The translations under genes and the position numbers were made by a program. Shown here one piece after another: positions 2,214 to 25,666 of a DNA stretch of 64,000 nucleotides; positions within the stretch are counted from its first letter, which is position 1; every line of letters starts with the position of its first letter. The DNA is from an uncultured virus (IMG/VR IMGVR_UViG_3300044621_002455) (Duplodnaviria; Heunggongvirae; Uroviricota; Caudoviricetes). The stretch is taken from the IMG/VR virus record IMGVR_UViG_3300044621_002455; one strand, 5' to 3'. The notes under the pieces were generated by a model. That model was not told the origin of the DNA and searched no databases. It worked only from the letters and a program-made list of their open reading frames with translations.

Positions 2214-2279
2214 CAGGATTCTTGATAAATGGCGTTTATTGGAAATCCTGATAATTAGCAAAACTCTCAGTGGGCTTGA

Positions 2280-2510
2280 CTAGTGCTGGATCGGTGTAAA
2301 TGACAGTTCAAACCACTCACCATCGCTGTTGCAATAAAAGAGATGAGGCGGTTCTGATTCTTGCCATACAAGCTGATTGCGGCAATCCTTGTCAAATTCC
2401 CAAGGCGGATTGATGTTTCGTCGAAGCCTGTAAATGCCTCCATTGGGTAAAGCTGGGTGGTTCAGGCGGATGCCCTCGGCGCCGTCAAAGCCTGCTTCTT
2501 GTGGGTTCAT
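2280..2510 (-). CDS. hypothetical protein (putative cassette gene)
   Basis: 76-aa ORF bounded by core sites. Confidence 0.65.
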   Translation of the reverse strand: MNPQEAGFDGAEGIRLNHPALPNGGIYRLRRNINPPWEFDKDCRNQLVWQESEPPHLFYCNSDGEWFELSFTPIQH

Positions 2511-2525
2511 TAGTTGATCGGACTA

Positions 2526-2720
2526 CTAAGGCAAAGAGATGCGTTCAACACGGCGCACTTCCAGTAAGTGCGGACCATCTTCGGAATAGACGGCTAAGTA
2601 ATGCTGCCCTTCATCCCAGGCTTGCTCCAGGGTTGGAGCTGTACCGCCTGCCTGCTCTTCGCCGTTATCGTCAAGCACCGAGAACTCGTAACTGGTGTCA
2701 AACACTGTGCAGTCAGTCAT
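2526..2720 (-). CDS. hypothetical acidic protein (putative cassette gene)
   Basis: 64-aa ORF bounded by core sites. Confidence 0.7.
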   Translation of the reverse strand: MTDCTVFDTSYEFSVLDDNGEEQAGGTAPTLEQAWDEGQHYLAVYSEDGPHLLEVRRVERISLP

Positions 2721-2741
2721 AAAGAATAGAAGTGATGTTGA

Positions 2742-3101
2742 CTAATCGGGCAGGGATTCAAGAGCTTGCTTAATGGTTTCAAGGTCTTGGTGAAACTCTC
2801 TAGTGTCATCAGCGCCTGTGGCTATGGCATAGAGGGCACCTAGCGCCTGCTCCTTCAAGCTCGGCGGCTTGGGGCGGCGGGCGGCGCGGAGTTTGGTTCC
2901 ATGCCCCCAGCCAGTGCCAAGTTCACAGTTCAGCAACTCACAGCACGCCTCCAGCTCCTGATCAGCGCCCCAGCGGGCGGATTGGGTGGCAAGAGCAAGC
3001 TCAACATCGCTTACTTCACCAGTAACGGTGGCACCGAAGTAGGTGCCAAGCCACTGCTGTACAAGCTCAGGCGGCGGAGTGATTGGGTGTCGTTGAGTCA
3101 T
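2742..3101 (-). CDS. hypothetical cyanophage protein (HPITPPPELVQQW family; putative cassette gene)
   Basis: 119 aa with PITPPPELVQQW, WGADQELEACC and RRPKPPSLKEQAL blocks, which I recall from small cyanophage ORFs. Confidence 0.75.
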   Translation of the reverse strand: MTQRHPITPPPELVQQWLGTYFGATVTGEVSDVELALATQSARWGADQELEACCELLNCELGTGWGHGTKLRAARRPKPPSLKEQALGALYAIATGADDTREFHQDLETIKQALESLPD

Positions 3102-3126
3102 TGGTGAACCTCGTAGTGTGTAGAAC

Positions 3127-4043
3127 TTAGGTGGATTTAAAACTGTCTTTAAACTCTTGCCATCCTTCTTCTAGTTGTTTGTCTGCCCATCCCCAGACAC
3201 CGTGTTCCATGCCATCAATGTTGGCTGCATCAATCTCTTGTTTAATGAGGTGACGCAAATGATCAAGTTGTTCTTCAGTCATGGTTGGTCTCCATTTTTT
3301 TAATACGTTTGTGCATTTGCCATAACAAGATCATCAATGATTCTGTATCAAGTTGAGAAGCGTGACTCCCTTGCCAGTACGCAAACTGCTCAACAAATCT
3401 GTAGTAGTCATCTGGAAGATCAGATTCATCTGTAATGCGAGCCAAAAGAAAAGACATGGAGAGTGTCCATTGGTTAAATGGAAGTGATGAGACGATAGCG
3501 CTTAAGGATTTCCTCTTGCTCTTTTTCTCGCCAGTACTGAAGCCTGCGCTCAAGCTTTGCCGTGGCAAGTTGCATTACGCTTCGCTTGTCGTGGTCCCAA
3601 TCAAGCTCAGAATGATTGGCCAAAGAGCTGCTCGTAGGCATGAGAGAGAGCGCGAAATTTCCTAAGATGATGATCCCTATCTTTCGCCAACAATTCCGCG
3701 AGATCTTTAACGAGCTGGTCGCCATTGTCATTGTCAAAGTATTCAAAAATAGCGTCCGTAAGTGTGTCTTTGGGCGTGCTCACAGTTGACCTCCTTTGAT
3801 GGCGTTGTTGTAGTTCATCAGATATTCTTCAAAATCAGCGCCAGTGGGAGCTTCTTTACAAAGCTCTTCATGATTCTCCTTGAGCATTTCCAAGCTCACG
3901 ACAAAAGCACAACGAATGCGATCCAGGGCAAGCTGTTGCACGAGATTGGGCTCTTCATCAATAGCCTTTTCAATGGTGCAAATGTATTCCTGCAGATCTT
4001 CCATGGAAAAACTGCGAGTGATCATGGGGCTACCAAAGCTCAT
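3127..4043 (-). CDS. cluster of four small hypothetical genes (about 3127-3282, 3275-3457, 3474-3746, 3780-4043)
   Basis: Closely spaced or overlapping minus-strand ORFs with acidic, protein-like composition; starts uncertain. Confidence 0.5.
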
Positions 4044-4203
4044 GGCCAGATCACCATCCTTGAAGGCAGAAATGGGATGGTTTGGCAGCAGGCGATTAAA
4101 TGTGGTGGTCACGATGGAAAGACGGAGGACTAGCGACGTTCGCCGTCGCATGAGCAAAGTATGCCAGCAAAAGGCCCCCATCAAGGGGGCTGTTAATAAA
4201 TCG

Positions 4204-4626
4204 TTACAAAGGCCTGATTGGCTGTCGCAATGCCTGCGTGGCAATACTGAGATTCTTCTGGCACGGCAAAGGTTGTTCCCTCCATTTCGTGGCAATGGCA
4301 TGGCAAGCGCCCATAGGCTCCAGCTCAGCATGCCTGAAGGCGCGGTCCAGGAGGATTTGATAAGCCTGGCGCTTTGGCTTGCTCAGAGGCTCTTCTGGCT
4401 CCTCGATGTTGGTGCGAGCAAAGTCGGCCAGTTCCGTAATATCATCCAGCTCGTTCGTGGCAATAACGAAATGCCTGCCCTTGGCTTGAGCCTTACGCCA
4501 TGCTGGATGAATGGGAGGCTCTTCCATTGCTAACGCCTTCACGTCTTCTTGAAGTTGAGGCGGAATGCAAATGTGTACCATCCGATGCAGTGAATGCTCT
4601 TCAACAAAAGAGAGCTGGATGTCCAT
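4204..4626 (-). CDS. hypothetical protein
   Basis: 140-aa ORF. Confidence 0.65.
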   Translation of the reverse strand: MDIQLSFVEEHSLHRMVHICIPPQLQEDVKALAMEEPPIHPAWRKAQAKGRHFVIATNELDDITELADFARTNIEEPEEPLSKPKRQAYQILLDRAFRHAELEPMGACHAIATKWREQPLPCQKNLSIATQALRQPIRPL

Positions 4627-4628
4627 GG

Positions 4629-4969
4629 TTAGGCGAAACGAAACTGTCCGAAATTAAAGGAGCGTGAACCAATGGTGATTTTGCTTTCACCAAAGCCGTC
4701 ATACATTGTGCCAAGGAGAAAGCTATTCCTCCATTGGAAACAAAATTGTCCTAGGCGGAGATGGCCAGTGGCATCAGTACAATGGAAAGAGAGAGTCATA
4801 GTTGAGGATCCTCAGGAAGCGGGGGAATTTCTTCGATGAGGGCAATCTTCACATCAGGGCGCATTGCAAGAATGAAATGCTCTGCTTGCTTTGCTGAAAT
4901 TGCCCCAAGGGCAATTTTCTTCCCGTCTGACATTGTTATGCAAAAGGTACGGCAAGTAGCAGCCATTAC
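4629..4969 (-). CDS. two small hypothetical genes (4629-4799, 4796-4969)
   Basis: 56- and 57-aa ORFs coupled by overlapping stop/start codons, read by hand. Confidence 0.5.
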
Positions 4970-5391
4970 CAACTTTCCTCCTCAAGCTCTTCAAGGATGT
5001 GTTGACTGAGCGTTTTTTCAAGCATGGGCTTCCATCCGCCGTCGCCTCCAATGCTATTGATTTCTGAAAGGAGATGGAGGGCATCAGCAACGCGAGTGGC
5101 GTCCATCAGACAGCTACAGGCCATACTTGGCTCCTCGCCAATCAGCTCCTCGAACATGCCAATGTGCAGCTCAAACCATTTACCAAGACAGAACAGGGCA
5201 ATCTGCCTGTAGGTTTCGTCGCCATGCTTCTGGAGCATGGATTCAATGGTGGCGGCCAGCTTGGGAGGAATACCTACTGTGCCATGGTCCTGCAGGCCAG
5301 GGGAGATTGAAGAGGCAATAGCTTGGCGCTTGCCGTCTTTGGCGGCTACGGCCTGGCGCAGGAATTGATCAACGGAATCAAACTGGTCCAA
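4966..5391 (-). CDS. hypothetical protein
   Basis: 141-aa ORF. Confidence 0.65.
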   Translation of the reverse strand: MDQFDSVDQFLRQAVAAKDGKRQAIASSISPGLQDHGTVGIPPKLAATIESMLQKHGDETYRQIALFCLGKWFELHIGMFEELIGEEPSMACSCLMDATRVADALHLLSEINSIGGDGGWKPMLEKTLSQHILEELEEESW

Positions 5392-5437
5392 TGCAAGGGA
5401 AGCATTTCGCTAATAATGGCCCCTTGTGGGGCCATTG

Positions 5438-6193
5438 TCAATAATCATCTTCATTAATTGTTTGTAAAGGCATGGTTTCAGGAATGGGCTCACTTTCTGG
5501 CTCAGCATCAAAGCTGATGGTCTCAGCAGACGCAAGGAGAGAATTGCCACGTCGTTCTTCCGTTGCCTTGGCTTCCTTTTCTTTTTCAATGGTCGAAGAC
5601 AAGTCTTTTAGGAAGGTTCGGTAGGAAGTGTCTTGGTTTTCTACGGGCTTGATTTCGTTAAGGCCCAAGAGCTTTGCTTGCTCAACCAGGGAGTTTTTGG
5701 CCACGTTAAGGAACGAAGCATCACCAGCACTTTCTTCTATCTTTACCATTTCCTTTCCGCCATCGTCACCACCGTCCATGATGGTTACTGTCTTCTTGCG
5801 CTTGCTGGTTTCAAAGCTTGCTAATGCAAGATCTTTAAGGTCCATTTGCTCTTTCAACAAACGAGCCCTATGCGTGTCTTGATTCTTGAGAATTTCCTGC
5901 GTATAAAGATCTCTGTTGAAATGCCTATCTCCATTAACTGTTTCCTTACTTAGTTTTAGTACATTCGCAATCTGACGATTGCTCATCTTCGCTGCCAATA
6001 ATTCTTGCACCATCCACCGCCTTACGCCAAGCATTTCTTTGGTATAAATGCCAGCACCATGCGTGCCGCCCTTTGATTTATGTTCGCGGATGGCTTCGTA
6101 TTGCGTAATTGGCACGCCTGCTTTTGTTAAAGCTTTCCTTGCATAAGCCTCTTCTTCTTCAGGCGTGGCGAATTCAATTTCTGGACGAGGCAT
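5438..6193 (-). CDS. HTH protein, probable terminase small subunit
   Basis: HTH LAAKMSNRQIANVLKLSKETVNGD, then a helical region and GDASFL...EQAKLLGL, a pattern seen in TerS-like proteins. Confidence 0.5.
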   Translation of the reverse strand: MPRPEIEFATPEEEEAYARKALTKAGVPITQYEAIREHKSKGGTHGAGIYTKEMLGVRRWMVQELLAAKMSNRQIANVLKLSKETVNGDRHFNRDLYTQEILKNQDTHRARLLKEQMDLKDLALASFETSKRKKTVTIMDGGDDGGKEMVKIEESAGDASFLNVAKNSLVEQAKLLGLNEIKPVENQDTSYRTFLKDLSSTIEKEKEAKATEERRGNSLLASAETISFDAEPESEPIPETMPLQTINEDDY

Positions 6194-6199
6194 TGTTTA

Positions 6200-6857
6200 T
6201 TATTTTGCTCCTCGCATTGTATCCCCTTTTCCATGGAGAGTACGAACAAACAATTCAGTGAAACGTTCCATGCGAGAAGCCACGACAGTGGCGGGACCAT
6301 CATCTATAGCTTTCTTGAGCATGCAAAGCTCTTCCCACTCAGAGTCAGACAATGGCACGATGATTTCCATAGTTAAGCAAAGGGGCGCATAAAGCGCCCC
6401 GTTTCTCCACAATCAATGATACTGCCAGAAGGCTTTTTCTAGCAAATCATCAAAATCGTTTAGCTTTTTAGGGCAATACTTTCGGACAAATTCTTCCATT
6501 TCTTTATGGAAGCTATCGACAATTTCTGCATAGGCAGCATCTAGTCCACGAGCGTCCATTTCATGCTCAGCTTCGCGCTCATAAGCGAGAGCCATGCAAT
6601 CTTTTGGATTGGTGCAAAATTCACGCATTAGCCTGCTCCTGAGTGGCGAAGCCATTATCAATTAATTGCTTGATTTCATGCAAGCTAGAGCGCCAATGGC
6701 GCTCGCCATTCTCATCCCTTGCTCCATAAAGAGTTCGGGCCGCTGGTTGCGGCCCTTTGCTTGGCTTTGAAAAACCATGATGGACAATAGGCAAAATTTC
6801 TGCCCCATTGTGCTCTAGGAGGGGAAGCTTGTCTACTGGTTGAGGCGGAAGAAGCAT
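6200..6857 (-). CDS. three small hypothetical genes (about 6200-6370, 6413-6600, 6621-6857)
   Basis: Consecutive minus-strand ORFs; TAACAT -10-like element near 6880. Confidence 0.55.
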
Positions 6858-6885
6858 TGCGCTGGTAGATTCCTTTGCAATGTTA

Positions 6886-7154
6886 AGAGCGTTTTAGACG
6901 ATTGAAGGTTGTTTATGCCTTTTGTCTAGAACGTTCCGCCTTTGGGGCTCCACTATGTCTTGAACGGCATTGCGGAGGTTTGAGGCATCGTCAGGCTTTT
7001 GATCGTTTTGTTAGGTGATCTTGGCCTGATGATTGAACGCTCCGCCCTGGGGGGCTACGCTTGCCCTCGCTGGCCAGGCAGCTTAGGCTTGGTAGCTCCC
7101 TCATGCCCCGCTGAGCATGTCTGGATGCACGCGGGACATTCCGGAACCAGTTTA
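6886..7154 (+). other. non-coding structured element with G-T wobble hairpins and a 27-nt motif shared with 61606-61632
   Basis: 15-bp stem GAGCGTTTTAGACGA/TTGTCTAGAACGTTC and a second long stem at about 6972-7046, both needing G-T pairs on the plus strand. Confidence 0.55.
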
Positions 7155-7234
7155 CAGCCCCCCGCCAAATTTCCACAAGAGGGCCGATGGGGAAACTGGC
7201 ACGCGCAAAAAAATGGGGCCATCAGGCCCCTTTT

Positions 7235-7348
7235 TCATTCCTCTTCGTCTTCGTAGTCTTCTTCCAGATCATCCTCAAAAATTTCGGGAGCTTCTTCGAC
7301 GATGGGAAGAGAAGCAGCACTTTCGCTGTTGTCAAAAATTAGTTTCAT
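7235..7348 (-). CDS. very acidic 37-aa micropeptide
   Basis: MKLIFDNSESAASLPIVEEAPEIFEDDLEEDYEDEEE; TAGTAT -10 at 7372-7377; terminator hairpin at 7214-7235. Confidence 0.5.
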   Translation of the reverse strand: MKLIFDNSESAASLPIVEEAPEIFEDDLEEDYEDEEE

Positions 7349-7446
7349 AATTTTATGAGCGCTTTCTGTTTATACTAGAAAAAGCTGCTCGCTACGGTAG
7401 GCAGCGGGGAGGCTAGCAATAGAGCCTCCCTCCTATTGCGAGACAG

Positions 7447-9459: not shown

Positions 9460-9549
9460 GGGGGAAGGTGAGATGAGGGTGTTCTAGCACCAGAATCCTG
9501 CTGCTGCAAGGCTTTCACAATTCTTAACGCGCCCTTCAGCTCCCGAGCC

Positions 9550-9577
9550 TTGACGGGCTGGCCATAACGGCTATATT
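9550..9577 (+). promoter_or_regulatory. sigma70-type promoter of the rightward replication operon
   Basis: TTGACG-16 nt-TATATT. Confidence 0.6.
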
Positions 9578-9667
9578 GGCCATGTCCCTCGCAAGGCACA
9601 ACCATGGAGCTTTGGCTGGCCGCCATTATCGGCTTCAGCATTGGCTACCTTCTCGGCCCTTTGTTTT

Positions 9668-9910
9668 ATGACCATTGATCACGGCGAACCCAAGAAGAGC
9701 CGCCACTTCACCCTCACTGACACTGCCTACAACCATCTCAAGGACATTGCCCATGAAGCACGACTGAGCCTCAGCGAGACTATCGAACGTCTCATCCGCA
9801 CAACTTCTCCATGGGAAGGAAATGCAGTGCTTTCTGACGGTGCATTCTCCCTGGTAGAAGACCATTCCATTGTTTCCGAAATTGAGGATTATGAAGGTTT
9901 CTCAGCTTAA
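9668..9910 (+). CDS. ribbon-helix-helix (CopG-like) DNA-binding protein
   Basis: KKSRHFTLTDTAYNHLKDIAHEARLSLSETIERLIR has the RHH strand-helix-helix pattern. Confidence 0.65.
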   Translation: MTIDHGEPKKSRHFTLTDTAYNHLKDIAHEARLSLSETIERLIRTTSPWEGNAVLSDGAFSLVEDHSIVSEIEDYEGFSA

Positions 9911-10351
9911 GCTTGCTTGTGAAGAGTTTCTTCTGGAATTTCCCGACACGGAAGTGAAGCTTCTCTGGGAAGAAGGCGTTCTCACTGAGAACTACGATCC
10001 CGAATGCCTAGAAGAGCCCACTGATGTGAGGGCGATTAATGACTGGCCGCTCCCTGGCGACAGCTTGATCGTCAAGAGTGAGGTGCCTTCCAAAATGTTT
10101 GTCATTATGTATGGCGAATATCAGCCCGCCTTTGGCTACGAAACCGTTGCCTCCATTGATTGATGGACTTCCCCAATCTCACCACCTCTGAGCTTTCTGC
10201 TCGCATGAAGCAAATGGACCATGACGTGGTTCATTGTCTTGATTGCTTTCTTTCTGATACTGGCGTGGCCGTAACTGGACTGAGCCTTTCGTTTGATGAA
10301 GAAACTGAAGAGTATCTTCTTGATTGGCACTTCGCTTTTCTTGAAGAATGA
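9891..10351 (+). CDS. two acidic hypothetical proteins (9891-10163, 10163-10351)
   Basis: Coupled ORFs within the operon. Confidence 0.6.
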
Positions 10352-14735: not shown

Positions 14736-14765
14736 TGATCTTGCATTGTTTCGTTTAGCCTAGCC

Positions 14766-16812: not shown

Positions 16813-16898
16813 GGCACTATTTAGTTGTCTTGCCCATAGTTTAACGCTAAATAATGTCCCATGAATTTCGTCTAGAATTAGAGCATTGATTGTCGGCT

Positions 16899-17108
16899 AT
16901 GGACAGTTTCAAGGACGGCCTTGCAAATTTCGTAGCCACCATCACGGCTGGTATGTTGCTTTCAACGGGCGCCATGCTTATAGCCGTAGGCACTCAACAA
17001 GCAAAGGTGGCAGTACAAATTGAAACCGTCACAGAGAAGCTTTCTACGCTTACAGACAAGATGAGCGAAATGGAAGCAAGAGTACGAAACCTAGAGATTG
17101 AACGCTAG
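16899..17108 (+). CDS. membrane-anchored coiled-coil protein (lysis-associated)
   Basis: TM segment plus heptad repeat, upstream of the holin and endolysin. Confidence 0.55.
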   Translation: MDSFKDGLANFVATITAGMLLSTGAMLIAVGTQQAKVAVQIETVTEKLSTLTDKMSEMEARVRNLEIER

Positions 17109-17138
17109 GCTATTTATATTCCCGTTGCATCTCTCATC

Positions 17139-17282
17139 ATGAGCGGCATTGAATGGTTCGTGATTGGTGGCATCATTGTTGCTGCTGTTGACCAAATCAT
17201 CGAACGCACTCCCTATAAGGAAAACAATATCATCCAGCTTCTGCTGACTGGCCTCAAAGCAGTCTTCCGCGTGAAGGGCTGA
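17139..17282 (+). CDS. putative holin (47 aa)
   Basis: MSGIEWFVIGGIIVAAVDQIIERTPYKENNIIQLLL...; ends 4 nt before the endolysin ATG. Confidence 0.55.
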   Translation: MSGIEWFVIGGIIVAAVDQIIERTPYKENNIIQLLLTGLKAVFRVKG

Positions 17283-17286
17283 AGCC

Positions 17287-18231: not shown

Positions 18232-18255
18232 TCATTCGCCATTCGCAAATAGCAA

Positions 18256-18660
18256 ATGAACTGGCAATCTTGGTTTAATGCTCTCTGCTACGAACTAGGC
18301 TTATGGGCCGCTTCAAAATGGCCTTCCCTTGCTCTTCAGCCATGGTTCAAGCAACTAATGGCTTGGTGCAGGCCTGATTGGGCAGAATGGCGCACTCAAA
18401 CAACGCTTAAGGCTGTTGATAAACAAGCTGCAGCCTTGTCGGAACAATGGAAGAGGGAGCATAATGAGCGCGTTGCGGAAGAACTGTCTCGCAAAGCGCA
18501 AGAGCTGTTCCCAGCATCAAAAATATCCCCACTACCCCACGCAATAGTTCCATCAGTGCTCATTGAAACAGCCCCGCCAGATGATGCTAGCGAGGCTGTC
18601 AAAGCCCTCGGAGGAGAACTAAGGATTACATATCGTTTGCCAGACCAAGGAGCGCCCTGA
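18256..18660 (+). CDS. hypothetical protein
   Basis: 134-aa ORF after the lysin. Confidence 0.6.
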   Translation: MNWQSWFNALCYELGLWAASKWPSLALQPWFKQLMAWCRPDWAEWRTQTTLKAVDKQAAALSEQWKREHNERVAEELSRKAQELFPASKISPLPHAIVPSVLIETAPPDDASEAVKALGGELRITYRLPDQGAP

Positions 18661-18838
18661 GACGCTTCCATTTGGCAAGCTCCTTTTCGTGATAATCTTC
18701 CCAAGAAGCAATGGTTTCACTGAGAGCCTTGCATGCCATTGTCGGATCGTCGTCCGTTAGCAGCTCAGCAAGAATGTCGGAAAGATGCTCAGTCTGCTGC
18801 TTGTACCATTGCCCTTCTGCGATAAAAGGAAATGCCAT
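18626..18838 (-). CDS. hypothetical protein
   Basis: 70 aa, with its own TATGCT -10 at 18863-18868. Confidence 0.55.
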   Translation of the reverse strand: MAFPFIAEGQWYKQQTEHLSDILAELLTDDDPTMACKALSETIASWEDYHEKELAKWKRLRALLGLANDM

Positions 18839-18871
18839 GAGAAAGGGGCATATTGCCGCCTAAGCATAGCT

Positions 18872-19684
18872 TCAATATGACCCGCCGTCGATAGTGGAAT
18901 CAACAATAGTAACACCGCTAAGCGTTACGCCAGAAATGGTTCCGCCAGTAATAGTGACGCCGCTAGCTGCTTGCAAAGCGATTGTGCCAAGCTCCAAGGC
19001 GGTGCGTGCGCCAGAAGCAGTGGTTGCGCCAGTGCCGCCATAAGCAAGGCCAACTGTAGTGCCTTGCCAAACGCCAGTGGAAATAGTTCCAACGCTTGTC
19101 AAGCTAGAAGAGTTAATTCCAGAACCAAGAGCGCTACCGCTTAATACAGACGTACCATTGATATAAAAGGCTTTACCACTAGCGAGATCAATGTGCTCGC
19201 TACTTGTCCAAGCGTCAGAACTATTTAACCAGCTAAAAGTTTTATCAGTGTCGCCTTTCAGCGTGATGCCACCACCATCGGCGCTAGTGTCAGACGGCGA
19301 TGCAGTGGAGCCAAGCTCTAAATTCTTATCGTCAACTGTAATAGTTGTGCTATTAACAGTGGTGGTGGTCCCATTAACTGTAAGATTACCACCAATAGTG
19401 ACACTGCTGGTTGTAGTAATTGTTGAAATAGTGGCGGCGCTTAAATCAACCGTGCCTGTGAAAGTTTTATTTCCACTAATTGTTTGAGCACCAGTTAAAT
19501 TAACGAACGCTCCCTTGCCGCCAATAGCCTCAATAGTGGTTGCGCTTCCATCTTGCCCGCCAGTACCTTTGCCGTAATAAAGCGTATCATCCACTTCATT
19601 GAAGGCTAATTCCGCATTAGCCAAGCTTGTCGGAGCGCCAGCATTACCACTTGCACGACGCTTAATCCGTAAAGTATTGGCCAT
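18872..19684 (-). CDS. tail fibre/virion structural protein
   Basis: N-terminal IKRR..G.APTSLANAELAFNE.D..LYYG domain, Thr/Ser/Gly-rich body, C-terminal IDGGSY. Confidence 0.75.
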   Translation of the reverse strand: MANTLRIKRRASGNAGAPTSLANAELAFNEVDDTLYYGKGTGGQDGSATTIEAIGGKGAFVNLTGAQTISGNKTFTGTVDLSAATISTITTTSSVTIGGNLTVNGTTTTVNSTTITVDDKNLELGSTASPSDTSADGGGITLKGDTDKTFSWLNSSDAWTSSEHIDLASGKAFYINGTSVLSGSALGSGINSSSLTSVGTISTGVWQGTTVGLAYGGTGATTASGARTALELGTIALQAASGVTITGGTISGVTLSGVTIVDSTIDGGSY

Positions 19685-20321
19685 TAGAAATTGCCCCCAT
19701 CAGTGAGTAGAGTTTTTGTTACAGAAGCGTCCGCCTTAAATTTTGCAGATGCTGCATCGTAATAAACTACGCTTCCATCAATTTTAGCGGTTTCATCTAA
19801 ATTGATTCCTTTTTCTCCTTGAGGACCAATCACGCCCTGTGGTCCTTCGCCAAAGAATTGAAGAATAGGCGATGGTGGAGAAGCCGTTACTGCTATTGCA
19901 TTGCTTTGTTCATTGACAACAATGACAAAGCTTTCAGCTTCTGCAATCGAGATGACAGACGTGGATTGTTGTATGGCAACTGTCATTTGAAGCTCAGGCC
20001 AAGATTTACAAACGCATTACCTTCTACCAAATAATATGCACTATTGTCAGGCTCTGTTACTAGCACGTCGTATTGCCCCTGTTGAGTGATGCCGCTAGTT
20101 CCAGAGGCTTCCAGTCGAATCTTGAAGACGCCACTCGCTTGATTAACATAGGATACGGCAAAGTCAGCAAGTTTAGTATTGCCAAGGCGATCATATAATT
20201 TAGACGCCACTGTGTACCCGCTCATGTTGACGGGCACCCCAGAAGCGTCTTTATATTGCAACTGCAGCTCAAACGTTGCGCCTTGATAAATCGTAATATC
20301 GTACTGACTTGGCGTAATCAT
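19684..20321 (-). CDS. two small virion proteins (19684-19986; 19983-20321 BppU-like)
   Basis: Collagen-like GPQG and DGGNF end; DITIYQGATF...PVNMSGYT...YDVLVT. Confidence 0.65.
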
Positions 20322-20350
20322 GACGAGCGTTTTCTTTTATTGTAAGCGAA

Positions 20351-21574
20351 TTAGGTGATTTCCACCCAGCCGATCATGCCAAGAGCTTTAGCGCTAGTGG
20401 CACTGTCGACGGTCAAGATGAGAGCGTCGCTTTCGCCAGAAGCATTTTGCCCCAAGGCAAGACGAATGGCCACTGCAATGTCGTAATTATTCGCACTGCC
20501 TTGACTGACAAAACCTGCGTCAACCACTGTACCACCTGTCGCAGTGCCACTAGTTGTCACTTCCACATTGCCCCTTTGATTGTCCGCAGCACTCCACGTC
20601 ACTCCACTAAGCGTTGGATTTAAACGCAAACGCCACAACACCACATCACTAGAAGCAGTGGCAGTGGAAATCCTCACGGGAAGAATGACATTACCAGTGC
20701 GACCACTTGCCATGCGAATACCAGCAGTGATGCGCTCCCCCGATGTGTTTGGAACAGAATTCAAATCGTGATTCACTGAATACACGGCGCCATCTGGCTC
20801 ATATCCCCCCTCGCTAAGAATGCTGCTGCAAATTTGCTTCATAGTTCTCCCTGAAGCTTGAGCAGAAGCATTTTGAATGCGATAGGACAATGGCAAAATA
20901 GCCGTTGTCATATATGCGCTAGTTAATGTGTTGTAATGATTAAATTCATGACAATAAATAATCTCGCCGTTAATTACGAAGCCAGTCCTCACTCGTCCCA
21001 CGCCAAGCCATTCAAGATCGGCAGTAAAAATCTGAGCTTTAGAGAAATCGAGAGAATCAAGAGTGTTAATGTTCCACGCTGATTGATCAACCACGTTTTC
21101 AACAACTGCGCCAGACGTGAAGCTTCTGATGACCATTTGCAACGTAGTACCACTTGCCCTAATCATCACTCCATTCTGATCATCAAAAAAGCCCACTTCT
21201 TGAATGAGACCAGAGACGGGAGTGGTGCCAGCAAAGCTTTGCATGATCATCATGCTCTTTCCTGGTTGGTACGGGAAGTATTGCTTAGTTCTACGCAGCA
21301 CTGTATCTCCAGACGCAGTGGTAGTCGTCAAAGCAGTGCTGCTTTCGTTTGTCAAATACGTGACCACGCCTCCATTGGAAATACGATCAAACCATTGGTC
21401 GGCACGCTTGTTGTAACGCATCGTGCTATCAAAAAGCGTATAGGGAGCGCTCGTGCGAGCACGCCCAAAAGCATCAACTGCTCCACTATCAGGGCCTGTC
21501 TTTAAAATCTGCCCGCGATAATCAGCTTCAATATGAGTTTCAAACTGCTCGCCGCCTCTAATTACTTGTCCCAT
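20351..21574 (-). CDS. virion structural protein
   Basis: 407 aa, DAFGRAR..P.TLFDS, YQPGKS and D.EWLGVGRVR.GF motifs typical of cyanophage virion proteins. Confidence 0.7.
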   Translation of the reverse strand: MGQVIRGGEQFETHIEADYRGQILKTGPDSGAVDAFGRARTSAPYTLFDSTMRYNKRADQWFDRISNGGVVTYLTNESSTALTTTTASGDTVLRRTKQYFPYQPGKSMMIMQSFAGTTPVSGLIQEVGFFDDQNGVMIRASGTTLQMVIRSFTSGAVVENVVDQSAWNINTLDSLDFSKAQIFTADLEWLGVGRVRTGFVINGEIIYCHEFNHYNTLTSAYMTTAILPLSYRIQNASAQASGRTMKQICSSILSEGGYEPDGAVYSVNHDLNSVPNTSGERITAGIRMASGRTGNVILPVRISTATASSDVVLWRLRLNPTLSGVTWSAADNQRGNVEVTTSGTATGGTVVDAGFVSQGSANNYDIAVAIRLALGQNASGESDALILTVDSATSAKALGMIGWVEIT

Positions 21575-21612
21575 GGAAAAGAATGCTTTCTTTCATTGTA
21601 CTAGCAAAAGAA

Positions 21613-21632
21613 AAGAGGCCTTTCGGCCTCTT
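21613..21632. terminator. intrinsic terminator
   Basis: AAGAGGCC-TTTC-GGCCTCTT, with a U-tract on the minus strand. Confidence 0.65.
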
Positions 21633-21634
21633 GA

Positions 21635-21766
21635 TTACTTGCCCTGTCCTCGCGAAAGCTTTCGTCCGTGAGAAGCTTTGCTATTCGCTCCATTGCCTTG
21701 GCGCGTCTTCTTGCGACGATTAGGAGAATGAAGCTTTTGCCCGTTAATGGTTTTGCTTGATGCCAT
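21635..21766 (-). CDS. small basic protein (43 aa, RGQGK end)
   Basis: MASSKTINGQK...KKTRQGNG..SK...RKLSRGQGK. Confidence 0.6.
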   Translation of the reverse strand: MASSKTINGQKLHSPNRRKKTRQGNGANSKASHGRKLSRGQGK

Positions 21767-22077
21767 CAGGACCAGGGCAGGCCAGTGCCAGTGGTGGGAG
21801 TGCGCTGTTGTTCGATTTGTGCGGCGAGGGCGGCTTCAATTTCTGCCACTTTCTCATCGCCAAACTTTTCCTTCACCCAGCCAGTGACAATTTCAGGCGT
21901 GAGTTGCGCATAGGGAATGGCTTGATCCTCTTCAGGGGCCTCAAGGCCAAGACTGCCATAGGCCGAACTGGCATAAGTGCCATCATCGGCGGAAATTGTA
22001 TAGTGAACCGTGTAGACAATGCCGTCAGAGAGCTGCCTCTCAAGCTGGGAAACGCCCCAATCGTAGGTGATCGCCAT
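21766..22077 (-). CDS. tail-fibre-associated protein
   Basis: YDW.V.QLER...DG.VYTVHY...YGS.GL...IPYAQLT.E.V.GWV...GLPW. Confidence 0.7.
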   Translation of the reverse strand: MAITYDWGVSQLERQLSDGIVYTVHYTISADDGTYASSAYGSLGLEAPEEDQAIPYAQLTPEIVTGWVKEKFGDEKVAEIEAALAAQIEQQRTPTTGTGLPWS

Positions 22078-22143
22078 GATTAAAAAGAATGGTCTTCGTT
22101 AGTTTAACAATGGAAAAGAAAGCGGCTTCTTCGGGAAACCGCC

Positions 22144-22998
22144 TCAAAGCACTGGCATCTCGTATTCTTGCGTACTATTGCAATAGTGCTTGAAAATCAC
22201 TTCGCTTGTATTGCCCGCCCAGTTGGCCACTTGTGGCACGGGAATGCCAGCCTCGATCCAGCGGCTGATAGCAGTGTGGCGACAATCATATGGCCTGTAA
22301 ACGTGAGAAATTAACCCTGCTTCATGCAAAGGCGAAAGCTTTTTCCTGAAATAGCTTTGAAAGGCAAGCCGATTCCATGGAAAAATAAAATCGTTTTCGC
22401 GAGGAAGTTCGGCAAGAATCTCTTGGCAACGAGCATTAATAGGCACCCAGCGGCGCTTGTTGGTTTTCGTGCTATTCTTTAGGCCATGCGTAAGCGTATA
22501 GTTTTGATGCACTAAAAGCTTGTTTTCCTTGATATCGTCCCATTTCGCCGCCCTCACTTCGCCAGTGCGCATTGCAGTTTGCAACATAAATTCCGTATAC
22601 CAAGACCAATTAACATCGCGATAAGTGAGCTTCGCTTCTAATGCGGCAAGGACCAAGCCAGTTTCATTTCGAGGGATGACAACGATTTCCTCTTCGCGTT
22701 GAGGTGCCTTTGGCATTTTGAAGCTTGCCAATGGATTGCGAGCAACGATTGCCACGTCTTCTTGCGCTGCCCATTTGTACATAGTCTTGATGTACATAGC
22801 AACGCGCCTTGACGTGAGCACTGGTTTTTCTCCCAATGCCCAGATCATTACTTTCCTGGCTTCGTCAATGTCTTGAATAGGACAGCGCTCCAGCCATTTG
22901 CTAACTTGCTTATAGTCTGAAGTGAGACTAGTTGGACATAAAGAAATGGAGCGCTCTTCGACGAAGGCGCTCCAGAGGCTTGAGACAGTGGTGGTCAT
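22144..22998 (-). CDS. tyrosine recombinase (core-binding plus catalytic domain, no arm-binding domain)
   Basis: Catalytic R in TAMRTGE, K in STKTNK, RPYDCRHT, WAGNT and the Tyr nucleophile in FKHY. Confidence 0.9.
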   Translation of the reverse strand: MTTTVSSLWSAFVEERSISLCPTSLTSDYKQVSKWLERCPIQDIDEARKVMIWALGEKPVLTSRRVAMYIKTMYKWAAQEDVAIVARNPLASFKMPKAPQREEEIVVIPRNETGLVLAALEAKLTYRDVNWSWYTEFMLQTAMRTGEVRAAKWDDIKENKLLVHQNYTLTHGLKNSTKTNKRRWVPINARCQEILAELPRENDFIFPWNRLAFQSYFRKKLSPLHEAGLISHVYRPYDCRHTAISRWIEAGIPVPQVANWAGNTSEVIFKHYCNSTQEYEMPVL

Positions 22999-23019
22999 GC
23001 TGGTCTTAAGAGGAGACTC

Positions 23020-23048
23020 AAGTTACCAGCTTTGCAAGGCCTTGTCAA
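23020..23048 (-). promoter_or_regulatory. sigma70 promoter of the recombinase
   Basis: TTGACA (23043-23048)-17 nt-TAACTT (23020-23025). Confidence 0.7.
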
Positions 23049-23059
23049 GTCAAAGACTT

Positions 23060-23206
23060 CTAGCTGTCAGCAAGGCGCTTCATCCCTTCATGGTTGTTGT
23101 CGTAAAGACGTTTCAACGCAGCATTGGCTTTTCTGATGGCTTCCGTTTCACGCCGCACTTCTTCAATGCGGCGATCAAGCGGTTCTAACCAATCGTCGTC
23201 AGACAT
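23060..23206 (-). CDS. hypothetical 48-aa protein (putative cassette gene)
   Basis: MSDDDWLEPLDRRIEEVRRETEAIRKANAALKRL..., bounded by site-like motifs. Confidence 0.55.
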   Translation of the reverse strand: MSDDDWLEPLDRRIEEVRRETEAIRKANAALKRLYDNNHEGMKRLADS

Positions 23207-23220
23207 AGTAGAGCAAGTGT

Positions 23221-23538
23221 CTAGGAGTTTTGTTCGACCTTCATCTGGCCCAGCACTTCCTTCAACAAACGATGCACTTCGCCAGCGTCATCAACGAACT
23301 CGCCTTTGTAGTAGAAACCTTCTTCGGTGAAGCGGGCAATTTCCTTAAGGGGTTCGCCGATGCTGAAGGCGATGGTAGAAGGAGGCATGTTTCCACCAAC
23401 CTTGAGACCTTCGTGGGGCGCAACTACAAGTTTGTTTGATGGGGCCACGGATTTCCACGGTCCGTTACCGTCAATACGGGCATACTCCTCACCGTTTGAA
23501 CGGAAGACGAGATCGTTGCTGTAATCTTGTTCGGTCAT
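23221..23538 (-). CDS. hypothetical protein with a fibre-like motif (putative cassette gene)
   Basis: MTEQDYSNDLVFRSNGEEYARIDGNG...; the stop codon lies inside TAGA-N7-TCTA. Confidence 0.6.
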   Translation of the reverse strand: MTEQDYSNDLVFRSNGEEYARIDGNGPWKSVAPSNKLVVAPHEGLKVGGNMPPSTIAFSIGEPLKEIARFTEEGFYYKGEFVDDAGEVHRLLKEVLGQMKVEQNS

Positions 23539-23689
23539 GGTTTCCAGAGAACTGTGGCCAGGAGCGGGAGGTGCAAACTCGCCGCTCCACCACATTACAT
23601 CACGGTGCGCAAAAATAAGTCTGACTGACAAAAAACGTGCCAGCCAGACTTACGTTGCTCAAAAACAGTAACGAAGGGGACCTCTACTG

Positions 23690-25666
23690 CTAGGCGATAC
23701 CAGCATCAGTGAGACGCTGTTCCAGTTGCTCGATGCGCTCCATTGCTTCCTGCAGCGCCTTCACTGCCTTCATGTAGAGCACCGAGTAGTTGACGCTCTT
23801 GGTTACGGTGCCGAGGTCGTTGCCTTCTGCGTCGCGGTCAGGGGATTCGCTGACGAGACCAGGGGAGACGAGTTCAACCTCTTGGGCGATCAGACCGATT
23901 TGGGTGTGGGTCTGGCCTTCTTTGAAGTTGTAATTAACAACTCGGAGATCCTTCAGGTCATCCCATTGGGAGCTGGCATCAACGATGTTCTCCTTCAGTT
24001 TGATGTCGGAGATGGCGCCGTAGGAGTTGTTGGTGTTTTGAACGTTGCCGTTATACCTAACAATAAAACATCCAGTTCCAGTGCCAACCGCTGTAGCTGA
24101 ATGTTGTCCCTCAAAAATCGCACCACTTGAAGCCGCTGCTGCGCTTACGCTTACCGTGATGCCGTCAGATGTTGAGTACGCATATTGCGCCCCATCTTTA
24201 GTAATCCTCATCCGCTCCGTCGGAGAACTCGCCCCATCCGCAGTAGTGGAGAACACCAATCTCCCTGGAAGGTCACTTGCAGAAGAGACAGTCCCATCAG
24301 CAGCGCAATCAATAGCTGCAAATGTTGCGCCAGTATTATCTCCGAACGTAATCTGCCCAAGCGCACTTCCTGAACCAGTCGCTGCAGAACCACGCTGAAT
24401 AGAGATAATGCCGCCACCAGTTGCGTCGCCGTTATACCCTTGAGCAACAATTCTTGCGTACTGTCCCTGTCCTGTCGTAGGGCTAGAAGACGTACCAACT
24501 AAGAGCCTGCCGCTGGAGTCGATGCGGACGCGTTCAGCATCGGCAGTTTTGAAAACAATGGGACCAGATCCATAGTTGTTTAGGAATACGGATGTGCTTC
24601 CATCTTCGTAGCTCAAGAAAGCTTTGTCAGTACCGGTAGAACTTCTAAAACGAACAGCAGCGAATGAATCACTCCTTGATGTAATAACACCATTTACATC
24701 AAGTGCAGTCCCAGGGCTCGTGGTGCCCACCCCTAGGCGGCCTGAGGAGTCAATTCTTGCTCGCTCAGTTCCATCTACCTTAAATTGAATAAGACTATTG
24801 GCTTGTGTATTTGCCTCATCAGCTTGCAAAAGTAATGCGCCAGTGCTATCTGACGCAAGCGTGGCAATACCAAATCCAGGATATGTAAGATTTAATTTTG
24901 CCGATGTAGTTGTTGAAAGATCTAGTAGCGTGGCAGGTGAACTAGTCCCCACGCCTACGAGCCCTGCCGAGGTGATGCGCAGGCGTTCGGTGTCATTGGT
25001 GCCAAGAAGCAGTGGCCCGGCTTGGGTATTGTAGAAGGAAGTATCACTTGAATCTGAAAAAATGTAAGCCCTCCTGGTTCCACCCGCATCTAGGTTAATT
25101 AAAGAGCTAGATGAGCCATTCAGCTCAAGAATCTGGCGTCCCGCCGAAGGGGAATTAAAAGTTGAAGTACCAACCCCAACATTCCCACTCGCATCCACAA
25201 ACAACCTGCCAGACCCACCAGTGCTGATGGCTACTTGGTCTGCGCCGGGGGAGTACAGTCCAGAATTTGCGTCCCCGCTAAAAAATAGTCCTGGCGTGGA
25301 AGCGCTGCCTGCAATAATGCCCAGCGCTCCAGTCATCGTATCACCAGTGACGTTTACAAACTCACCAGCTTCACTGCGCCATGCGCTGCCGTCCCAAACT
25401 TTAAAAACGTAAGTGCCGCCACTCGTATCTAGCCATTGCTCGCCAAGACTATTGCCAGCAGTGCCGCCACTTGCGGGACTTGCATTAGGAACTCCACTGC
25501 CAACATGCACAGGCCCCACTTTCACCAGGCTTCCATTGCTGTCCTTGAAGAACATGCCGGGAGCACCACTTGCATAATTAATGGCCACTTGACCATCAAC
25601 CATGGAAGCAGGATTAGGACGCTTATCCAGCGTCGAGGAACGTAAATGCTGAAGAACGCCAGCCAT
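23690..25666 (-). CDS. modular tail fibre / receptor-binding protein with C-terminal Peptidase S74 chaperone
   Basis: Repeated ER.RI.S.G..GVGT..P modules; C-terminal SD.KLKENI...IGLIAQEVE...VNYS followed by a coiled coil. Confidence 0.9.
   Translation of the reverse strand: MAGVLQHLRSSTLDKRPNPASMVDGQVAINYASGAPGMFFKDSNGSLVKVGPVHVGSGVPNASPASGGTAGNSLGEQWLDTSGGTYVFKVWDGSAWRSEAGEFVNVTGDTMTGALGIIAGSASTPGLFFSGDANSGLYSPGADQVAISTGGSGRLFVDASGNVGVGTSTFNSPSAGRQILELNGSSSSLINLDAGGTRRAYIFSDSSDTSFYNTQAGPLLLGTNDTERLRITSAGLVGVGTSSPATLLDLSTTTSAKLNLTYPGFGIATLASDSTGALLLQADEANTQANSLIQFKVDGTERARIDSSGRLGVGTTSPGTALDVNGVITSRSDSFAAVRFRSSTGTDKAFLSYEDGSTSVFLNNYGSGPIVFKTADAERVRIDSSGRLLVGTSSSPTTGQGQYARIVAQGYNGDATGGGIISIQRGSAATGSGSALGQITFGDNTGATFAAIDCAADGTVSSASDLPGRLVFSTTADGASSPTERMRITKDGAQYAYSTSDGITVSVSAAAASSGAIFEGQHSATAVGTGTGCFIVRYNGNVQNTNNSYGAISDIKLKENIVDASSQWDDLKDLRVVNYNFKEGQTHTQIGLIAQEVELVSPGLVSESPDRDAEGNDLGTVTKSVNYSVLYMKAVKALQEAMERIEQLEQRLTDAGIA
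24244..25179. repeat. five in-frame putative recombinase core sites at tail-fibre module boundaries
   Basis: Coding strand TTGG-GGTTGGT-ACTT (25165-25179), TAGG-CGTGGGG-ACTA (24943-24957), TAGG-GGTGGGC-ACCA (24721-24735), TAGT-TGGTACG-TCTT (24487-24501), TGGT-GTTCTCC-ACTA (24244-24258). Confidence 0.55.

Follow-up and report, generated by a model that had tools for sequence, protein, structure and literature searches.

Integrons combine an IntI integrase, which carries a characteristic extra segment and lies beside the cassette array, with an attI site, a cassette promoter and attC sites. The attC sites are imperfect hairpin-forming repeats of several tens of bases that follow each cassette gene, and the cassettes travel with their own recombination site. 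In tail-fibre shufflons and invertase switches, inverted repeats flank alternative fibre segments beside a recombinase. Temperate-phage integration modules pair int with a neighbouring attP that matches a host attB, and integrated copies occur in host genomes. Stoperators are numerous sites dispersed over a genome to which the immunity repressor binds. Tyrosine recombinases share the catalytic signature Arg-Lys-His-Arg-His/Trp-Tyr. For T4-type phages, the available portions of the literature describe PeSLs as composites of sigma-70 promoters and stem-loop terminators and report the demonstration of PeSL mini-circles (Arbiol et al. 2010, PMC2839356; PMC4122927). Excerpts on cluster A mycobacteriophages and their stoperators describe monomeric two-domain repressors that bind asymmetric 13-mers, with orientation mattering (PMC9283540). 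For Synechococcus phage S-LBS1, the accessible sections of the paper propose lysogeny potential, report that no evidence of induction was obtained, and do not mention the element described below (Zhong et al. 2018, PMC6157547).

The window analysed here is a 64,000-nt stretch of DNA from an uncultured Caudoviricetes virus. According to an original prediction, a quasi-palindromic 15-mer, TAGT-N7-ACTA, recurs at accessory-gene junctions, inside the tail fibre gene and next to a tyrosine recombinase, which would shuffle cassettes at these sites in an integron-like manner. We find that three unrelated features had been merged: strings in the fibre gene, sites at gene junctions, and an integrase. 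Our joint best reading, with a probability of about 0.5, is that the fibre sites are repeat codons, that the junction element is an intercistronic signal as well as a recombination linker, and that the integrase is an ordinary one of the S-LBS1 type. Among the observations behind the prediction, the junction sites, the recombinase and the in-phase fibre strings stand, and the palindrome enrichment and one "perfect" site do not. What survives of its interpretation is a conserved boundary element at accessory-gene junctions; the integron-like reading and the fibre module boundaries are lost.

An oriented element at accessory-gene junctions

The sites at 2268-2282, 2511-2525, 2730-2744 and 3114-3128 differ from TAGT-N7-ACTA by 1, 0, 1 and 1 mismatches and do mark four successive junctions between minus-strand genes. 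The palindrome as such is not enriched. A perfect match occurs once in the whole window against 0.24 expected, and matches with at most one mismatch number 17 against 8.6 in shuffles; the roughly 16 chance matches quoted for 64 kb agree with neither count. When the spacer was varied from N2 to N13, between 6 and 22 matches were obtained (N3 22, N13 19, N4 and N9 17), and because the N7 count is matched or exceeded at other spacings, the N7 palindrome is not special. The supposedly perfect site at 23209-23223 reads TAGAGCAAGTGTCTA and has 2 mismatches, and by our own count 4 of the 8 specified bases deviate at 23669-23683. The signal that exceeds chance appears when these junction sites are read with an orientation, as TAGTC-N5-CACT along the coding strand, which gives the following array:

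2269..2282, minus strand: J1, reading TAGTCAAGCCCACT on the coding strand; the 76-aa ORF 2280..2510 ends at its TAG; final element of the array
2280..2720, minus strand: variable cargo, two ORFs of 76 aa and 64 aa lying between J3, J2 and J1
2512..2525, minus strand: J2, TAGTCCGATCAACT, 1 mismatch; directly after the TAG stop of the 64-aa ORF 2526..2720, which makes a double TAG
2731..2744, minus strand: J3, TAGTCAACATCACT; the 119-aa F1-family gene ends at its TAG
2742..3101, minus strand: F1-family small gene, 119 aa, phrog_32006, predicted fold all helical
3115..3128, minus strand: J4, AAGTTCTACACACT, 2 mismatches; shifted by one base relative to the TAA stop of a 51-aa ORF

Allowing up to two mismatches, the oriented element begins at the stop codon in 4 of the window's 61 same-strand junctions, and J4, a fifth copy, falls one base off that register. 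The junction spacers in the array are 14-21 nt long. The 14-nt element is asymmetric, and the inverted match common to all copies is only 3 bp. Folding of the J3 region gives just -0.1 kcal/mol, a stability that 199 of 200 shuffles equal or surpass.

The element in related phages

We counted the element in 79 family loci comprising 447,815 bp of viral contigs, with 50 shuffles as background. The perfect form is found 65 times in 55 distinct contexts, where the shuffles yield 2.5 on average and 10 at most, and 54 of these 55 distinct copies lie on the gene strand. The element's TAG terminates a reading frame of 40 aa or longer in 46 of the 55, and in 47 an ATG is no more than 25 nt away. Stop-linked copies number 0-6 per genome (11 genomes), most of them beside genes of two small families, F1 and F2, or in the gap between fibre and integrase genes; the element is local, not genome-wide. 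It is widespread in freshwater cyanophage-like viruses, where it bounds variable small genes of the F1 and F2 families and marks the points of gene swaps.

Gene content in relatives differs exactly at the array junctions, as had been anticipated, and the breakpoints against L007, L013, G002 and L094 are located in element junctions. The J2 14-mer is identical in G002, G003, L094, L165, L158, L107 and L099, between different genes, and in G002 and G003 other genes take the places of the 76-aa and 64-aa cargo ORFs. Across contigs that otherwise diverge, J3 plus the final 21 coding bases before it make up a 35-bp patch with 97-100% identity, within genes whose own identity is only 70-74%. The CTACA type, seen at J4, also lies upstream of F1 genes in L100, L124 and L111. 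The F1 genes of L097, L099, L100 and L111 share the window's C-terminal half and have different N-terminal halves; recombination at short conserved patches takes place inside F1 genes too.

At a given array position the arms are constant and the N5 drifts through point changes. The N5 types hold the order CTACA, AACAT, CACCT, CGATC, AGACC in the window, G002, G003 and several other contigs while the intervening genes differ. Near-identical cargo retains the same flanking types in 21 of 26 clusters; the other 5 are mixed, and at least two of these differ by an N5 point variant only. Arrays are placed either in the early region, as in the window, or, in S-LBS1-like relatives, between tail fibre and integrase.

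The element does not depend on an integrase in cis. Arrays had been expected to co-occur with the recombinase, yet 9 of the 11 array-bearing records that are at least 90% complete lack a PF00589 recombinase and 2 have one; across all 20 array-bearing records, PF00589 is present in 3. We verified elements in five of the nine integrase-less genomes (G009, G012, G013, G014 and G019).

The integrase and the gap before it

The 284-aa recombinase is present as claimed, downstream of the fibre gene. Features from it up to the fibre stop codon are:

21766..22077, minus strand: DUF7936 gene, directly after the integrase gene
22144..22998, minus strand: tyrosine recombinase / phage integrase (int), 284 aa, PF00589
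23020..23048, minus strand: sigma-70-like putative int promoter, found by eye: TTGACA (23048-23043), 17 nt, TAACTT (23025-23020)
23046..23059, minus strand: degenerate element AAGTCTTTGACTTG, immediately beyond the 48-aa ORF's stop and sharing bases with the -35 hexamer
23060..23631, minus strand: variable cargo, a 48-aa ORF (23060..23206) and a 136-aa ORF (23221..23631, or 124 aa from the ATG at 23595)
23210..23223, minus strand: degenerate element TAGACACTTGCTCT, 2 mismatches; the 136-aa ORF ends at its TAG
23615..23653, minus strand: strong terminator-type hairpin, then a T-run, after the fibre gene
23667..23692, minus strand: fibre stop codon and a degenerate, indel-bearing fibre-end element

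The catalytic domain (residues 132-277) scores 48 bits with Pfam against a cut-off of 27.1; the protein matches the phrog_1 integrase at 2.8e-37 and is 79.6% identical to the S-LBS1 integrase. By eye, against the consensus, the candidate catalytic residues are R144, K178 or K181, R240 and Y272, with Y237 at the usual His and N263 at the usual His/Trp. No relative with a solved structure was found by sequence. The enzyme looks like a small phage integrase of the S-LBS1 type, and in S-LBS1 it likewise follows directly after the tail fibre gene, with a one-mismatch element copy at the fibre stop codon. S-LBS1 differs in its 34.6-kb genome with 60% GC and in lacking F1 and F2 genes. A DUF7936 homologue follows int in 66 of 77 integrase loci, and a terminator-like hairpin lies at the integrase stop codon. 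The genome collection contains only two loci with a close relative, one of which, L082, is colinear with phage genes. The window contains no tRNA gene, and the contig matches listed include no host junction.

The sites proposed between fibre and recombinase have a real basis, since relatives carry element copies there and the window's 23046-23059, 23210-23223 and 23667-23692 are homologous to them. The first corresponds to TAGTC-TTTGA-CACT in L057 and L022, the second to TAGTCACTTGCTTG in L007, which lacks the 48-aa ORF, and the third to a clean fibre-end element, TAGTCCCCTTCAC(T/A), in G003, L005, L027 and S-LBS1. Similarity to close relatives near the putative int promoter extends to about 23049-23071; a promoter scan did not report this promoter because its -10 hexamer matches at 3 of 6 positions only.

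Across the integrase clade, 41 of 66 loci have an element on the int strand no more than 450 nt upstream, against 2 of 66 with one on the opposite strand of that interval and 2 of 78 with one up to 450 nt downstream. ACCTT-type copies in L049, L052 and L053, some 90 nt ahead of int, coincide with no functional stop codon and have no start codon close by, and one copy in L045 follows a tRNA gene. Since these copies lie away from start and stop codons, a DNA-level site fits them better than a translational one.

The tail fibre gene

23690..25666, minus strand: tail fibre gene, 658 aa, with a C-terminal Peptidase_S74 chaperone domain
~25157-25207, 24935-24985, 24713-24763 and 24479-24532, minus strand: fibre peptide repeats that cause the in-frame motif matches
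24242-24259, minus strand: degenerate LVFSTT repeat copy in the fibre gene

Motif-like strings do recur in one codon phase of this gene, as reported; they do not delimit modules. The phase-1 matches fall on repeats of the form RxRI(D/T)xxGx(L/V)GVGT(S/T) at residues 154, 228, 302 and 379 and on LVFSTT at residue 470, and they share a phase because the repeat codons (Leu/Val ... Gly-Val-Gly-Thr-Ser/Thr) spell them. A shufflon or invertase switch was rejected, the fibre-like genes all lying on one strand; apart from a local hairpin, the inverted repeats sought for such a switch measured at most 27 nt, and pairs of at least 20 nt were only 71-80% complementary.

Possible roles of the element

The existence, orientation, distribution and boundary role of the junction element are shown, as is its independence from an integrase in cis; we infer its molecular function and the route of recombination at it. 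The junction sites are copies of a conserved, strand-specific 14-nt intercistronic element, TAGTC-N5-CACT, that opens with the upstream gene's stop codon, is followed about 1-17 nt on by the next start codon, and accompanies small accessory-gene arrays, mainly F1 and F2, in freshwater cyanosiphovirus-like phages. It may act in cis as an expression signal along transcription, for instance in coupling or processing between cistrons, and it may also be the place where exchanges between co-infecting genomes survive, because it would be the only conserved sequence between otherwise unrelated genes. Such exchanges would arise through short-homology or illegitimate recombination. Among the window's gene products are a Sak-like annealing protein and a PD-(D/E)XK exonuclease, both of which could plausibly help. 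The integrase would have its own putative promoter and terminator in the window and be the last cistron behind an array in relatives. Several points count against this account: the copies lying away from functional stop codons and from start codons, the strong directional association with this integrase (41 of 66 loci), and the shortness of a 14-18 nt conserved stretch for homologous recombination. Exchanges seem to fall in either arm (the right arm for the window versus L007, the left for L023 versus L045), a pattern that a recombinase cutting both spacer ends could also yield.

PeSLs, as far as the available text describes them, are similar: they too are conserved motifs between genes, they border small non-essential genes of unknown function in plastic regions, and relatives differ by insertions, deletions and replacements at them. 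The element differs in being only 14 nt long and fused to a stop codon, with no stem-loop and no room for a promoter (PMC2839356; PMC4122927).

It is rather unlikely that the element is instead a candidate DNA binding site of a phage regulator, the bound protein controlling read-through of the accessory genes and integrase. An asymmetric, bipartite sequence on the gene strand in 54 of 55 copies, placed in short intergenic spaces, persisting away from start and stop codons and in some cases overlapping or preceding the int -35 hexamer, would suit such a site, and the window encodes HTH proteins (45377-45661 and 5438-6193). The excerpts on cluster A stoperators supply the precedent of two-domain repressors on oriented asymmetric 13-mers; like the element, stoperators are asymmetric, measure about 13-14 bp, lie in short gaps between genes and are strictly oriented to transcription. 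Stoperators, however, number more than 20 sites genome-wide (PMC9283540), against 0-6 stop-linked copies of the element, mostly clustered with F1 and F2 and not spread. The element also occurs in integrase-less, presumably lytic, genomes, and in 46 of the 55 copies the TAG serves as a working stop, a feature that no pure DNA site would need.

We think it improbable that the element is a minimal, homology-tolerant site-specific recombination site served in trans, with true cassette arrays and position-specific sites; the enzyme could be this integrase clade where present, or else one from the host or a co-infecting phage. Genes are replaced exactly between conserved 14-mers with unrelated flanks (the J2 type in the window, G002 and G003), collapsed sites in L045, L049, L052 and L072 keep element copies without cargo, and arrays differ in genome position among lineages. 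Yet gene-precise indels must land in these 15-25-nt spacers under any mechanism, no recombinase co-occurs with the arrays, and a scan of the window's 93 ORFs found no second recombinase or transposase. The N5 types are positional and seem not to move with cargo, and L072 has two adjacent copies, not an in-register hybrid. If such a site existed, co-infecting freshwater phages would be trading cassettes, namely the small-gene arrays and, in S-LBS1-like phages, the integrase gene as well: an integron-like gene exchange native to phage genomes with sites about ten times shorter than attC.

Very unlikely is the model of the original prediction, in which the 284-aa recombinase uses the motif as core site and shuffles accessory genes and fibre modules as an integron would. 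The resemblance lies in same-orientation arrays of small, mostly promoterless genes with a conserved site at or near each stop and varying cargo; the element does stand upstream of int on its strand in the 41 loci, variable cargo, including the L045 tRNA gene, lies between element copies next to int, and the window's 48-aa ORF sits between two degenerate copies where L007 has a single hybrid copy. Against it, the fibre sites are peptide-repeat codons, and the good window copies, in the array at 2269-3128, lie about 19 kb from int, which in relatives comes last among the co-directional cistrons, behind the array; the int start codon of S-LBS1-like relatives follows an element at about 10 nt, as for any other array cistron. 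The integrase is not required in cis, given the nine of eleven genomes without one, and the element types are positional, cargo keeping its flanks in the 21 of 26 clusters. An asymmetric element with a 3-bp inverted match, in short spacers and an unstructured J3 region, offers no attC hairpin. The protein, only 284 aa long, matches no NCBIfam integron-integrase model at E <= 0.01, its NCBIfam scores being 23 bits for XerD, 19 for generic tyrosine recombinase and 17 for XerC against cut-offs of 279-335.

That nothing is there, the matches arising by chance from TAG stop codons in short spacers, can be dismissed almost entirely: the palindrome as written is indeed not enriched and 3 of the 4 junction sites contain a TAG stop codon, but for the junction sites chance is refuted by conservation and enrichment across relatives: perfect oriented copies occur in 55 distinct contexts where shuffles average 2.5, and a 35-bp patch is almost invariant within otherwise divergent genes.

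An oriented element at the ends of small accessory genes

The four sites between 2268 and 3128 lie, as the original prediction stated, at four successive minus-strand gene junctions. The quasi-palindrome TAGT-N7-ACTA, under which they had been grouped as a recurring motif, did not hold up: it occurs in perfect form only once in the window (2511-2525; 0.24 expected) and its enrichment is rejected. Allowing one mismatch, the window contains 17 matches against 8.6 +/- 2.85 in shuffles, and when its half-sites are set N2 to N13 apart the match counts are 6, 22, 17, 11, 11, 17, 13, 17, 16, 15, 14 and 19. Since the counts at other spacings are comparable, N7 is not special, and shuffles underestimate match counts at all half-site spacings.

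Taken as copies of an oriented 14-nt element, TAGTC-N5-CACT, whose TAG is usually the stop codon of the upstream gene, the junction sites are real. We aligned 89 members of a 119-aa gene family (phrog_32006, here F1), represented in the window at 2742-3101 on the minus strand, around their stop codons. On the coding strand the element closes many of these copies, the window's reading TAGTCAACATCACT, and at F1 ends it is followed after 1-17 nt by an ATG, with downstream genes that differ. The window's junction sites share a coding-strand register, from which the last departs by one base:

2269-2282, minus strand, J1, begins at the stop codon, no mismatch
2512-2525, minus strand, J2, begins at the stop codon, one mismatch
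2731-2744, minus strand, J3, begins at the stop codon, no mismatch
3115-3128, minus strand, J4, two mismatches, register off by one base

Across 79 family loci (447,815 bp) we counted 65 perfect matches in 55 distinct contexts, where fifty shuffles averaged 2.5 and reached at most 10. Gene-strand placement holds for 54 of the 55 distinct copies, the TAG ends an open frame of 40 aa or more in 46 of them, and an ATG lies within 25 nt in 47. An oriented perfect match at 52043-52056 falls inside an ORF whose frame runs on through it; we treated it as chance. Junctions do not carry the element as a rule: with up to two mismatches, it begins at the stop codon in 4 of the window's 61 same-strand junctions. 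Eleven genomes (nine of them near-complete relatives) carry 0-6 stop-linked matches each, most of which adjoin genes of F1 or of a second small family, F2 (proteins beginning MSELSPAAQAV), or sit in the gap between the tail fibre and integrase genes.

The order of N5 types (CTACA, AACAT, CACCT, CGATC, AGACC) is constant in the window, in the related viral records G002 and G003 and in several further contigs, while the genes between the ordered types belong to different families or are unique. At one array position the arms (TAGTC and CACT) do not vary, and N5 drifts through point changes; at the array end, for instance, it reads AAGCC, AGACC, AAACC or CGACC. The arms therefore seem to be under selection, and the N5 types seem to be inherited according to position. 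Clusters of near-identical cargo (85% nucleotide identity or more) number 26, of which 21 have unchanged flanking types, and recent cassette hopping between sites is therefore not evident; at least two of the five mixed-flank clusters differ only by an N5 point variant. A supposed in-register hybrid at loci L050 and L072 proved on inspection to be two adjacent copies. The stretch 2731-2765 forms a 35-bp patch that keeps 97-100% identity in contigs where the rest of the F1 gene is about 70-74% identical, and a 47-kb contig (L094) has only 2731-3286 in common with the window, at 96% identity.

F1 itself (window gene and loci L094-L172) is very common in freshwater viral contigs, often in several copies per genome, and at least 614 of 620 candidate stretches were confirmed as its relatives. 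Internally its genes are mosaic at the patch LRAARRPKPPSLKEQAL, which is conserved. A fold made up wholly of helices is predicted (pLDDT 82); searches returned no Pfam family and no solved-structure match at E <= 0.001, and in Atlas F1 matches only unnamed viral clusters. The F1 label was withdrawn from the window's 136-aa ORF as a single-linkage artefact, the two proteins being 15% identical in alignment.

Association with the integrase gene

The element is associated with the gene for a 284-aa tyrosine recombinase (the integrase; 22144-22998, minus strand), and the association is real and one-directional. With at most one mismatch and fibre-coding matches excluded, it lies within 450 nt upstream and on the integrase strand in 41 of the 66 integrase loci with enough sequence, on the opposite strand over that distance in only 2 of the 66, and within 450 nt downstream in 2 of 78. 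Relatives resembling Synechococcus phage S-LBS1 have the layout fibre, element, F1, element, F2 or F1, element, integrase, with the integrase start codon about 10 nt past the last element, as with the small genes; in collapsed forms the element copies persist without cargo. In L007, a related locus without the window's 48-aa ORF, one hybrid copy replaces the window's two, with 4 bp shared at the joint.

The window's own sites in this region (23046-23059, 23210-23223 and 23667-23692) are degenerate and homologous to clean copies in relatives. The supposedly perfect site at 23209-23223 actually reads TAGAGCAAGTGTCTA, with two mismatches, and the one at 23669-23683, proposed as degenerate, matches the palindrome at only 4 of 8 specified bases. 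In the window's group the integrase gene has a promoter of its own (TTGACA, 17 nt, TAACTT), recognized by eye and absent from the list of a consensus scan, and an element copy lies before its -35 hexamer or overlaps it. A strong terminator-type hairpin follows the fibre gene and a weaker one the integrase gene. A palindrome near the promoter, CTTGNCAAG, was dropped, with 4 matches against 2.26 expected.

Other features of these loci were seen in passing. In L045 a complete tRNA-Arg (ACG) gene (9897-9970) lies between two element copies immediately upstream of the integrase gene; tRNA genes occur in 2 of 53 loci scanned, beside the integrase gene only here. In L027, about 90-143 nt upstream of the integrase gene, a 12-nt unit stands in three tandem copies between two element copies. 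Directly after the window's integrase gene is a DUF7936 gene (21766-22077, minus strand), with a homologue on the same strand within 600 nt downstream in 66 of 77 integrase loci; its product may be a partner of the integrase.

Possible function of the element

We infer that the element is an intercistronic expression signal and an exchange linker. It would act in cis in operons of small genes, read along the direction of transcription, and would double as a linker where exchanges among related phages can persist. Within F1 genes, too, short conserved patches show exchange, and the phage encodes a Sak-like annealing protein and an exonuclease. Less probably the element acts at the DNA level, as the site of a regulator or of recombination; room for this is left by some copies remote from start codons and functional stop codons, and by the strong directionality of the integrase association. 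If it signals expression, it would be an intercistronic signal of a new kind, in phages whose hosts use few Shine-Dalgarno sites; if it serves recombination, no smaller cassette boundary is known. In both cases, two conserved arms are open to mutation in a system with a culturable relative, S-LBS1.

Phage genome mosaicism is usually attributed to random illegitimate recombination followed by selection, and to our knowledge junction sequences that are conserved and channel exchange are understood in few groups only. The present element is very short, fused to a stop codon and strand-specific, and it bounds swappable small genes in a seemingly large group of uncultured freshwater phages, framing the integrase gene too in one lineage. 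Among its closest described analogues are the PeSL cassettes of T4-type phages (PMC2839356) and the stoperators of mycobacteriophages (PMC9283540). Searches of the literature on S-LBS1, PeSL, stoperators and intergenic motifs of cyanophages and siphoviruses yielded no description of the element, which suggests only weakly that it is unpublished, as its sequence is not text-searchable.

Integron cassettes resemble the arrays in layout only, and the integron-like cassette system first proposed fails on arrays lacking a recombinase, on asymmetry, on structure and on the missing integron-integrase match. The expected co-occurrence of arrays and recombinase was contradicted: PF00589 is present in 3 of 20 records with F1 arrays and, among the 11 with a completeness rating of 90% or more, in 2. 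Of the nine such records that lack PF00589, five were analysed over their full length, and all five carry 2-5 stop-linked matches (at most one mismatch), of which 1 or 2 adjoin F1 or F2 genes in G009, G013, G014 and G019, and 5 in G012. No second recombinase or transposase was found among 93 ORFs scanned in the window. In place of a symmetric core site there is an asymmetric element with only a 3-bp inverted match between its arms, in surroundings less structured than shuffled sequence. The NCBIfam search gave no match to an integron-integrase model, only a far sub-threshold likeness to XerC/XerD. By sequence, no solved structure gave a meaningful match to the integrase.

By eye, against the general consensus, the integrase keeps what we take to be the catalytic residues Arg144, Lys178 or Lys181, Arg240 and Tyr272; Tyr237 presumably stands at the usual first catalytic His and Asn263 at the usual His/Trp. 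Neither attP, attB nor an integrated copy was found in the window's tRNA scan, the genome collection or the contig matches listed, and a tRNA-linked attP was discarded, the window being without tRNA. The genome collection offered only two MAG contigs as candidate prophage copies, of which L082 is colinear with the phage, and among the contig matches listed there was no host junction near the integrase gene. The S-LBS1 report likewise describes genetic potential for lysogeny, with evidence of induction absent (PMC6157547).

Repeats and mosaicism in the tail fibre gene

The in-frame "module boundary" sites within the tail fibre gene turned out to be codons of a peptide repeat and not DNA sites. 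The repeat, RxRI(D/T)xxGx(L/V)GVGT(S/T)(S/T), lies at residues 154, 228, 302 and 379, a spacing of 74-77 residues, with a degenerate copy near 470-485. Eight of the 11 motif-like strings in the gene (at most two mismatches) share one codon phase, and four fall on repeats (residues 237, 311, 389 and 470), where a Leu or Val codon, Gly-Val-Gly and Thr-Ser/Thr spell out both half-sites. Coordinate 25179, the end point of the system as first drawn, falls on the first repeat copy. Coding repeats in fibre genes can thus masquerade as DNA sites.

Several breakpoints of fibre similarity with relatives fall on conserved segments or on the boundary of the chaperone domain:

23690-25666, minus strand, tail fibre gene, 658 aa with a C-terminal Peptidase_S74 chaperone domain
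25179, breakpoint against L003
25205, breakpoint against L013
24256, breakpoint against phages 7B11-B and WH11-B
24052/24068, breakpoints against L013/L005

A further breakpoint, 25329 (L004), is on neither. These breakpoints are ordinary mosaicism at conserved coding segments. Assembled contigs from four lake metagenomes show, among the matches listed, joints and loose ends at the repeat segments: the joints run from 24256 to 24488 and from 24990 to 25166, and loose ends lie at 24754 and at 25170. The short sides of the joints are 21-30 nt, which makes them weak evidence, and joints and loose ends agree weakly with exchange at conserved segments.

Genome context and relatives

Judged by its predicted genes, the window covers the greater part of a siphovirus-type phage genome. 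Besides portal, major capsid and tape measure genes, two tail fibre genes and an endolysin gene, there are genes for ThyX, a dCTP deaminase-like protein, a ribonucleotide reductase, a primase/helicase, a Sak-like annealing protein and a PD-(D/E)XK exonuclease. A related viral record of 73,391 bp (G002) has direct terminal repeats, is rated 100% complete and encodes an integrase 98% identical to the window's. The nearest named phage is S-LBS1, whose integrase is 79.6% identical and likewise encoded directly after a tail fibre gene; the record nearest to the window (G001) is a 13-kb fragment without an integrase.

A three-gene block at 18869-20350, encoding a BppL-like receptor-binding-type protein, a 100-aa ORF and an LtfC-like protein, is missing from L004, L005 and L007 with breakpoints at gene ends, and may be an optional second receptor-binding module. 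The sole repressor-like gene found (45377-45661, plus strand; a 94-aa XRE-family HTH protein) is opposed to its neighbours in orientation and lies about 22 kb from the integrase gene; a further HTH protein is encoded at 5438-6193. Three clustered glycosyltransferase-like genes (46607-49261, minus strand) adjoin FAD-oxidoreductase-like and sugar-isomerase-like genes. Near the window's end, at 63209-63341, where GC and AT skew are both strong, purine-rich sequence is repeated in tandem, the periods being about 10-54 nt. A 66-nt near-perfect palindrome at 25667-25732, in the gap between the tail fibre genes, is kept in G002 and G003; as RNA it folds at -31.8 kcal/mol (z -7.45), carries TAGTC on both strands at its tip, and is terminator-like in both directions.
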